Shown here: piece by piece, positions 26,421 through 28,552 of the stretch
Layout: every line of letters begins with the position of its first letter
Numbering within the stretch: position 1 is the stretch's first letter
Source of the DNA: an uncultured Chlamydiae bacterium
GTDB lineage: Bacteria > Chlamydiota > Chlamydiia > Chlamydiales > JAJFMA01
Assembly (NCBI GenBank): GCA_963713615.1
Contig: CAVQMM010000001.1
Location: 3,520,001-3,584,000 of the forward strand
DNA: 64,000 nt
Direction: 5' to 3'
The notes under the pieces: generated by a model
What the model was told of the DNA's origin: nothing
The model's input: the letters and a program-made list of their open reading frames with translations, nothing else
Database searches by the model: none
Position numbers and translations under genes: made by a program

Positions 26421-27294
26421 ACGATTCCGTAAGGTATATTAGTTATGTGATAGAGACTGCCATTTTAAATGCTGCAAGTTAGTTAGTCAATCTGAAGTGT
26501 TTTTTATTAATGTCATGTAGTGGATGGCTGTTGGGCTAAAATGAACAAAATGAGGTAATTGCAAAATTATTTGAACCCTTGAGAATCGATTCTCAGGAAA
26601 AAAGGTTACCTTTTTTTGCGAGAAGGCCATTCTGGAGAGCTCAAACGACATGGCACTATCTGGCTCTGGAGACACAGGCTTTTACCTCTTCCCAGGCCCG
26701 AAGGGTCGATATTGCAACAGGCCAGGGCATCGCCCTGGTATATGCCAAGGGGGATTTCGCAGTCTGAAAGACTGCCACAAGACGTCTGTATTCACACGCT
26801 ATTTATGCAAGCGCCTTGTGGCAGCCCTACGAGGCTGACAGGAAATATCCCTTGGCATATACCAGGGCGATGCCCCATAGGCCTCAACCTAAGCCTAACA
26901 ATCGTATCTCGGCGCGCAGCGCTTTGGAGTGCGGTCGCTTGCGACCGCTTTGGGTTCCTTGCGACGGTCGTGTGCAACGGCATCACTATAATTCCCTAAG
27001 GGTAAAATAGTTAGTACATGCAGCCTTCGACGAATCCATACAATGCCGTTTAGCATTGCCGTCCCAAGGAACGAAAAGCGGTCGCAAGCGACCGCACTCC
27101 AAAGCGCTGCGCGCCGAGATACGATTGTGAAGTCCTAAGTCATTAAGATATAAGCTCAAAAGACCTGTTAGGTTGATGCCTATGGGGCGATGCCCTGGCC
27201 TGTTGCAATATCGACCCTTCTACCATAGGATTTTGCAAACGATTATCGACGGTAATAGGAAAAGACAAAAAACATTTCTCTAAGGTATCATTTT

Positions 27295-27440
27295 GGCCGA
27301 CGAAGGTGTGGCCGTGTGCCCTTAGCGAATGTTTGTTCGCCTGGCCCGATATGCCGCCTTCGTCGTTTGCATCATCCAATAATTCCGTTCGGGATGGTGC
27401 CAATCTTCTGATTGTGGCTCTGTAAGTAGAAGTGGAATTT
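27295..27440 (+). ncRNA. Putative IS110 bridge RNA (target-binding loop plus donor-binding loop)
   Basis: Two stem/internal-loop/stem units. Loop segments match the target (gccctt; ggcccga = rc of tcgggcc) and the donor junction (cgggatg; gtaga = rc of tctac). Confidence 0.75.
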
Positions 27441-28552
27441 GGGTGAAATTTAACGCTCACAAACACTTAACAGGGCATTTATCATGCAAAATCAGTCCGA
27501 ACTTCGTATTTGTCTAGATATCGGTAGCGTTCGACACTATGTAGCCATAGGCTTGTCCACAGGAGAACGCATCGATGGATTTTATCTAAACCACACTTCT
27601 GAAGACATTGAGCAGTTTTTTGAGAAAATTGAGAAGCTTAGAATTTCCTATAACATGCCTGTTGTCATGGCTATGGAGGGGTTTAATGGCTATGCTAGAC
27701 CCATCGATAGATATGCTCTTGATCACGGATATTCTTTGTATAGTGTCAACAACATGAAATTGGCTAGATTTAAGGAAGTTTTTCCTGGTCCAGCCAAAAC
27801 AGATCCAATTGACGCTTGGGCTATTTTTAGCTTGTTTCAAGTTCAAGAGACCTTACCGTTGGCAAAAAATATTCTGCAGAAAGTAGAGCCTCCACCGGTA
27901 TGCAACGAGCAACTTAAACATATTTCAAGGCGTCGTAGAGAGTTGGTAAAAGAAAAGACAAGAATCATAAATCGACTTCAAGGGGATCTACAGGCTGTTT
28001 GCCCCGGTCTACTGTCTATTACAAAAAATCCAGCAAATCTTTGGTTTCTACGATTTCTTGCTTCGAAGGAAGACATGACCATGTTGCTTCGAATGCAAAA
28101 AAGAAGCCTGTTGCAAATCAAGGGCGTTGGAGAGGTTTATGCAGAGGAAATTCAGAAATGGCAAAAGACGGCTAAGTTCTCTTCAAAGGTTGAGTGGATA
28201 GGAAAATTAATAGTACGAGATGTCAGAAGGCTACTCGAGATGCTAGATGAAATAGCGCAGTGTACGGCGACAGCGATGATGGCACCTCGGCGACACGCAG
28301 TTGGCACCTTCCATCACCGCCCGGCGTCAGCGAGTTGGCACCTTCCATCACCGACTGACGACAACCTCCTGGCACCTCCTCCATCACCGACCCGCGACAC
28401 GCGGTTGGCACCTCCCATCACCGCCCGACGACAGTCGGTTGGCACCTAAAAACAGGCCAGAATCACCCGGGCCCAGATCCTTCTCGTCTGAAGTCCTTCC
28501 AGCCCGGTCCATACCCGCAGGGCGAGTATGGACCATCTGTTCTAACTTCTTC

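Follow-up and report, generated by a model that had tools for sequence, protein, structure and literature searches.

The predicted guide RNA considered here lies at the left end of a 1,766-bp IS110-group element in the window, i.e., the whole 64,000-nucleotide stretch of DNA that was analyzed, and all features given below are on its plus strand unless stated otherwise. The element sits within a REP-like repeat, the left part of which (27190..27218, with a left target ending in ...GACCCT) is followed by the TC core of the left junction (27219..27220), the 263-bp non-coding left end (27221..27483), the 5′ part of the IS110 recombinase gene encoding the DEDD domain with D12, E65, D107, and D110 (27484..28260), an IS21 copy on the minus strand (istA, istB; 28261..31524), the 3′ part of the recombinase gene with PF02371 and the conserved S320 (31525..31951), the right end (31952..32255), the TC core of the right junction (32256..32257), and, finally, the right target GGGCC with the remainder of the repeat (32258..32268). 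The IS21 element, present in seven genomic copies, is 3,264 bp long and breaks the recombinase ORF at 28261 with a 7-bp target duplication. The left end starts with the right donor TACCA, overlapping a predicted −10 box TACCAT (27221-27226), and continues with the right inverted-repeat arm (27226-27233); the right end contains a predicted −35 box TTGAAA (32235-32240), the left inverted-repeat arm (32240-32247), and the left donor CGGGATG (32249-32255).

The right end also holds a 27-bp direct repeat (32030-32057 and 32118-32146), near which, at about 32100-32112, lies a stretch resembling the left target guide; judging by their read-through C-termini, the closest proteins (P0003, P0004, P0010, and P0016) may have such a 27-bp-repeat module in their right ends as well. 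A second structured RNA was not found in the right end, which folds no better than its shuffles (z −0.44). Two adjacent minus-strand ORFs (23449-24924 and 25044-26420) encode products of 491 and 458 aa, respectively, which have no Pfam match and whose hydrophobic N-termini look similar.

Nine near-identical copies of the element are present in the genome, all with an identical left end and all inserted at one and the same TC dinucleotide of the REP-like repeat, without any difference in orientation. The flanking sequence is common to the nine copies, GACCCT-TC-GGGCC being the site of eight and the variant TGCCCT-TC-GGGCT that of the ninth, so that the proposed sharing of the gacccttc/gggcc repeat site applies to the whole set. 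The seven uninterrupted elements, each of 1,766 bp, differ by at most one base, which argues for a recent spread. The 398-aa recombinase named in the original prediction is encoded by an intact ORF in each of the eight other copies, but not by the copy in the window, whose own ORF is split by the IS21 element. Nested elements occur in two of the nine copies, the other being a second multi-copy element of 2.87 kb inside the right end of another IS110 copy (G000:C1:1751221-1754078). As is characteristic of the IS110 group, there is a short core at both ends, no further target duplication, and a specific, oriented target. In contigs from DNA runs, empty-site joints skip 1,766 bp with a 2-base overlap; the right-end-to-left-end joint expected of a circle was not seen in the contigs of four DNA runs, which are not of a kind that can show absence.

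The 398-aa protein is a member of the IS110 family judging by its sequence, as it matches PF01548 and PF02371 and scores 173.7 bits against NF033542 (cut-off 140). Among 42 homologs, D12, E65, and D110 are invariant and D107 and S320 nearly so, and a profile aligns these five residues with the catalytic positions of ISCro4 (E 2.8e-13), IS621 being matched as well (E 1.1e-12); a single-sequence search of solved structures gave no match for the protein. The closest database proteins are 52-64% identical to it.

Intact copies of the target motif GACCCTTCGGGCC number 12 in the window and 258 in the whole genome, and all 276 genomic [AG]CCCTTCGGGC sites lie in copies of the repeat, 269 of them full and seven, by inspection, truncated. 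The claim that 12 further intact motifs are found in the window, always in repeats, was thus confirmed by the count. The repeat is palindromic and of high copy number (267 sites), with 126 pairs of neighbors less than 1 kb apart, nearly all of them on opposite strands. Elsewhere in the genome, 13 of the 14 intact copies of a variant form of the repeat directly follow a gene for a Y1 (HUH) transposase (locus G000:C1:3243391-3248884; L176, L241), where the gene is followed by 13 variant repeats in alternating orientation. The whole arrangement, i.e., a high-copy palindrome, often in inverted pairs and clustered by a Y1 gene, is that of REPs associated with Y1 transposases, and the Y1 protein itself scores below the REP-transposase cut-off. 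The gene beside the array has the DHVH and Y---Q--HH signature of TnpA-Y1 subclass 1.2, for which PMC6006769 lists no REPs; the difference here is that related palindromes flank the gene in this and in five related genomes. Related Y1 genes were found in 13 of 40 related genomes, related palindromes flank the gene in five of the nine loci fetched from such genomes, and a congener carries GAGCCCTTCGGGCT beside its Y1 gene, while the exact 23-nt local form of the repeat was not found in the 40 relatives. Describing the repeat as lineage-specific, as had been done initially, was therefore an overstatement, because a Y1 transposase is linked to it and a congener carries related repeats.

The predicted target-binding loop of the left end (27298..27365; model R1) is closed by an outer stem (27298-27306/27357-27365) and an inner stem (27325-27330/27335-27340), both supported by covariation. 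It carries the left target guide GTGTGCCCTT (27314..27323, with gccctt at 27318-27323), which covers only the T of the core, the right target guide ggcccga (27343..27349), the reverse complement of TCGGGCC, and the predicted handshake bases U,A,U (27350..27352). On the main repeat, the left guide has five core-side matches and one G-T wobble. It matches the Y1-linked G-form of the repeat at nine of ten positions, and the dominant A-form is matched via the G-T wobble, from which we infer that the left guide may be tuned to an older, wider form of the repeat and not to its local expansion. The predicted donor-binding loop (27381..27439), whose stems also covary, is closed by the outer stem aattcc/ggaatt (27381-27386/27434-27439) and carries the left donor guide CGGGATG (27390..27396), which abuts the core without covering any of it, the right donor guide gtaga (27426..27430), the reverse complement of TCTAC, and the predicted handshake bases A,G (27431..27432). 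All coordinates and motifs originally given for the left end were found in the sequence; the inner stem of the second loop is present too, but it consists of GCC/GGC and AATC/GATT and has a GT bulge.

When the left end was shuffled 20,000 times with its dinucleotide content preserved, no shuffle matched the four guide arms (5, 7, 7, and 5 nt) jointly, and six reached their summed length; these arms were picked post hoc, yet they are located at the guide positions of the homologs. That the matches are due to chance, or that they are copies of the element ends without any RNA function, is barely credible: each short arm is admittedly weak when taken singly (p 0.19, 0.013, 0.019, and 0.094 in the shuffle test), but the joint result, the compensatory changes in the stems, and the guide-target covariation described below all speak against it. 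The folding check that had been proposed gave a divided answer, in that the single-sequence minimum free energy fold (z −2.9 and −3.4) leaves the guide loops only partly open, and the open two-loop form rests on the alignment of homologs. Rfam searches at gathering thresholds revealed no family in the left end and only a tRNA elsewhere in the window, and the scan for internal promoters gave two weak sites against 1.0 ± 0.9 expected. In two studies, RNA runs yielded contigs that begin near the apex of the first loop (27331 and 27339) and span the 3′ two-thirds of the predicted RNA; since sections of the ORF are covered as well and carry-over of DNA is possible, these contigs are not evidence of expression.

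The homologous DNA analyzed came from the 80 best of 191 loci in genomes and the 80 best of 479 in metagenomes, the closest proteins (61-64%) being represented by protein sequence only. These 160 loci (45-60% identity) share the two-loop RNA and the TC core; among the 161 loci including that of the window, the target-loop motif was found in 132, the left junction in 123, and the right junction in 147. In the homologs, the sequence is GG(G/T)G-TC-TACCAT at left junctions and GGGATGT-TC-AG at right junctions, the main target of the clade being GG(G/T)G-TC-AGG. The longer form of this usual target, GG(G/T)GTCAG(G/T)TC(T/A)TT, is likewise repetitive, occurring in clusters in many unrelated genomes, as seen at L016-L027, L050, L129, L138, and L139 and in 15 copies within 130 kb of G045. 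Alignment of 54 RNAs gave two stem-loops bearing internal loops within a long left non-coding end, as in the IS110 group generally, with 96.3% of the cells paired and both partners changed in 16 of the 26 pairs, a count that leans toward the tested structure because that structure was edited from the consensus fold of the same alignment; none of 500 shuffles reached this covariation, and slid controls gave 34-52%. The covariance model envisaged in the original prediction was built from homologous left ends and recovered the nine home copies and 58 of the 60 clade loci withheld from it, and gave no match at any of four distant IS110 loci.

The assignment of TC as the core, proposed at first for the window element, extends to the whole clade because of its single-T empty sites, its promoter spacing, and its inverted-repeat spacing. 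Empty sites of the homologs contained a single T in 31 cases from 18 loci and two T's in none; in five genomes, single-T empty sites numbered 43 against 10 in reversed controls, and the two-T form eight against four. Across the reconstructed circle junctions, a 17-bp spacing separates the −35 and −10 boxes in 99 of 111 distinct right ends, including that of the window. The spacing between the 8-bp imperfect inverted-repeat arms around the donor (mean 6.3/8 matches in 83 homologs, 7/8 in the window element) is 16 bp in 77 of the 83 homologs and 15 bp in the window element. A crossover one base further left, with TT as the target core and GT as the donor core, would make “TC core” an error of register; it would supply the second T that is invariant in IS621, with a GT core the donor loop would read as being of the IS621 type, and both registers fit the junctions of the window element alone. 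We regard this register as improbable, and it was rejected for the clade on the three grounds named above: the 17-bp and 16-bp spacings both require the donor GATGT-TC-TAC. In addition, only the TC register lets donor T7 pair with the invariant A that follows the right target guide.

In L170 (2697-2800), a 50-bp duplication of the left end is joined at an internal donor-like site and resembles the product of half-match recombination; the internal donor-like hairpin is also present in L078, L086, L120, L144, and L168. The closest metagenome homolog, L094, has an extra T before the TC core of its left junction (about position 330), which is out of register with its GGGG-TC guide, and its right end was not found.

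Covariation between guides and targets was assessed with 65 distinct target loops from 91 paired loci, taken once per loop and excluding that of the window. The left guide-target match (positions 2-6) was 4.88 vs. 4.28 ± 0.09 on permutation and the right (positions 10-14) was 3.95 vs. 2.82 ± 0.13; the match of the left donor guide, assessed separately, was 6.80 vs. 6.62 ± 0.02, none of 5,000 permutations reaching the observed value in any of the three cases; most targets are alike and the homologs are related, so these tests, in which relatedness is ignored, overstate the significance. Target-loop guides thus covary with the target and donor-loop guides with the donor, as is characteristic of the IS110 group, including loci with divergent targets such as GCTCTG-TC-AAGTT in Acidobacteriota and the GGG-type right targets of L135 and L167. 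Many homologous insertions mismatch their own guides, and position 13 of the right arm matches in only 45%. The idea that the bridge RNA is programmed against the palindromic repeat of its own genome is accordingly supported from two sides, by the site shared by nine of nine copies and by the covariation across homologs, a comparison on which the original prediction could have failed.

A different view of site choice is that the shape of the DNA or a protein is mainly responsible, the repeat hairpin acting as a gate as reported for ISPpu10 (10.64898/2026.03.19.712850) and the guide match being secondary. The left guide match is short, the crossover falls in the loop of a small CCC-TTC-GGG hairpin, and sequence and context are inseparable in this genome, every perfect site being in a repeat. 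Even so, we consider this view unlikely, as the upstream 6-bp hairpin is intact at six of nine occupied and 164 of 276 empty sites, i.e., without enrichment, and homologs with the same scaffold use a target that forms no hairpin, with guides that follow that target.

The statement that the left guides do not fully cover the core applies to both guides of the window element, but the two gaps differ in their generality: the donor-guide gap is a trait of the clade, a single base separating the guide from the core in all 49 homologs scored, whereas the target-guide gap belongs to this element alone, since TC is covered in 94 of 103 homolog loops and only the core T in the window. The base after the left donor guide pairs inside the RNA in the clade, as G-U in 41 and A-U in 12 of 54 cases, similar to A131-U159 of IS621, in which the guide covers the first core base (PMC11208158). 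Because the bottom-strand cut site lies beyond the reach of the left donor guide, it is conceivable that the RNA guides transfer of the top strand only, in a copy-out, paste-in manner, with host repair or replication completing the bottom strand and no Holliday-junction step. This is a variant of the guided reading and retains RNA guidance; both right guides span the top-strand cut, and pathways of this type have been reported for CazIS110-1 (10.1101/2025.10.25.684509) and IS621 (10.64898/2026.08.31.748434). On the other hand, the presence of TC under the left target guide in most homolog loops is what engagement of the bottom strands would lead one to expect, and the 2-bp core shared in 140 of 145 right junctions is not obviously needed for one-strand transfer. 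On balance, we hold top-strand-only transfer to be a serious possibility of somewhat better than one-in-three standing.

The window element is an outlier of its clade. Both of its target guides differ from those of the other members, in step with the target. The predicted handshake bases, a feature missed in the earlier reading of the left end, have changed as well: the donor-loop bases A,G would pair with target positions 7 and 6 (T and C) only after exchange, and the clade has C at the donor-loop position in 48 of 49 members opposite target G in 49 of 49, where the window element has A opposite T. The target-loop bases U,A,U have no pair in the target and could form one wobble and two Watson-Crick pairs with donor G,T,A after exchange; in 49 of 49 clade members an A after the right target guide lies opposite donor T7, and in the window element a U lies opposite G. 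In terms of pairing potential, positions 6-7 thus pass from no Watson-Crick pair before exchange to three and a wobble after it, the two handshake changes representing a single event in a single lineage. The donor is shorter by one base, GATG-TC occurring in the window element only and GATGT-TC in 140 of 145 right junctions (the remaining four have TA or TT or are cut off), and one extra A keeps the −35/−10 spacing at 17 bp. In a quick tree with very long outgroup branches, the protein is nested in a group with 99% SH-aLRT support together with GG(G/T)G-targeting elements, and the readdressing of the window element was for this reason probably derived within the GG(G/T)G-TC-AGG clade. The short donor may mark a subclade, because the read-through N-terminus of P0019, a close protein represented by protein sequence only, weakly suggests the same handshake U.

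Taken as a whole, these data make it very likely, with a probability of roughly 90%, that the left end encodes a two-loop bridge RNA guiding the 398-aa DEDD/serine recombinase to the TC site of the repeat. An IS621-like cycle, for which the bridge-RNA mechanism and handshake logic are described in PMC11208160, PMC11208158, and PMC13626964, would account for the features observed and appears equally well founded as a model by analogy. According to it, the element would circularize at TC; the circle would join the −35 box of the right end to the −10 box of the left end at 17 bp and so drive the RNA; the first loop would base-pair with both target strands and the second with the circle junction; the top strands would be exchanged after cleavage 3′ of TC; and the handshake pairs gained after the swap would favor insertion into the repeat. 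The ancestor is envisaged as having targeted GG(G/T)G-TC-AGG, readdressing having probably taken place via both target guides and both handshake positions while the donor block moved one base closer to the core, a direction of change that we infer from the tree. A more far-reaching proposal, to which we give just under one chance in three of being right in full, is that the TC-core clade uses top-strand transfer with a coreless left donor guide and varied donor lengths, and that the window element is a co-adapted natural reprogramming onto a Y1-transposase REP, comprising the target arms, both handshake positions, the donor register, and the promoter spacing.

The element is present in one of 400 genomes of the phylum and was not found in 40 related genomes, which gave only two weak matches (23-29%). 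Plasmids gave no match at 1e-40, with a best identity of about 27% at 1e-10. A protein search of viral contigs did not find a clade member; the 49 left-guide and three donor-loop pattern matches in such contigs were in none that encodes a homolog, and neither the circle junction, in either spacing, nor the right-end motif was matched there. The clade is already included in a published IS110 tree, because rows 386 and 549 of Supplementary Table 1 of PMC11208160, which bear no ISfinder name, carry its motifs MEGYNG.ARPLD and NVNNLKLAR[FY]K. Its donor junction was not found in the readable parts of the published supplements searched, and the literature search, whose reach did not extend to subscription papers and bioRxiv supplements, yielded no paper on a TC-core IS110 clade.

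The steering of IS110 elements into host REPs is known and common biology, REP targeting (IS621, ISPpu10, and ISPpu9) as well as natural redirection (PMC11187229) being already in print. Bridge recombinases are being developed as genome-editing tools, and the engineered ones, IS621 and ISCro4/IS622, have a CT core and are reported to require T at core position 9; a TC-core clade with more than 100 distinct natural RNAs would widen the range of reachable sites. The outlier element is a natural test of design rules, its handshake having changed with the target and its donor having been shortened while it still attained nine copies. With this clade, the need for a left donor guide over the core, and one- vs. 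two-strand exchange at insertion, become testable.

In comparison with IS621 and ISCro4/IS622 (PMC11208160, PMC11208158, PMC13626964, and 10.1101/2025.05.14.653916; PDB 8wt6 and 9t56), the window element shares, as modeled, the DEDD plus serine recombinase and the two-loop RNA in the left end with the target loop before the donor loop, as well as the 2-bp core, the circle-junction promoter (predicted here), REP targets, an extended right target guide, and predicted handshake bases pairing after exchange. In IS621, the handshake at positions 6-7 has one pair before and three after exchange (PMC13626964), and the same logic would apply here. It differs from them in having TC instead of CT as the core, a 398-aa protein compared with the 328-341 residues of the solved chains, a left donor guide that ends before the core, and 8-bp inverted repeats flanking the donor at a spacing of 15 bp, compared with 16 bp in its clade. 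The IS621-like clade is characterized by a CT core with a near-invariant T at position 9, by the core being included in all four guide pairings, and by handshake pairing with positions 6-7 of the other DNA after exchange; only the last is found here, as pairing potential, and the left donor guide includes none and the left target guide one of the core bases. The element is therefore placed outside the IS621-like clade on account of its TC core and of a core absent from some of the four pairings. From the IS1111 group, in which the RNA is in a long right end and the left end is short, it differs in having the RNA in the left end, while sub-terminal inverted repeats of 7-17 bp are shared.

ISPpu10 of Pseudomonas putida (10.64898/2026.03.19.712850) and ISPpu9 (PMC12288879) are likewise described as IS110-group elements confined to host REPs, and their targets, like those of the window element, often lie as close inverted pairs; ISPpu10 combines its stem-loop gate with a CT core, whereas occupied sites here show no such preference for an upstream hairpin. 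The closest parallel to the readdressing is provided by ISEc11/ISXne4 and ISEc21/ISMch6 (PMC11187229), related elements in which changed guide bases match changed targets. Unlike those pairs, the window element shows joint changes in its two target arms, its two handshake positions, and its donor length, and its contrast set consists of about 100 distinct relatives with a near-constant target.
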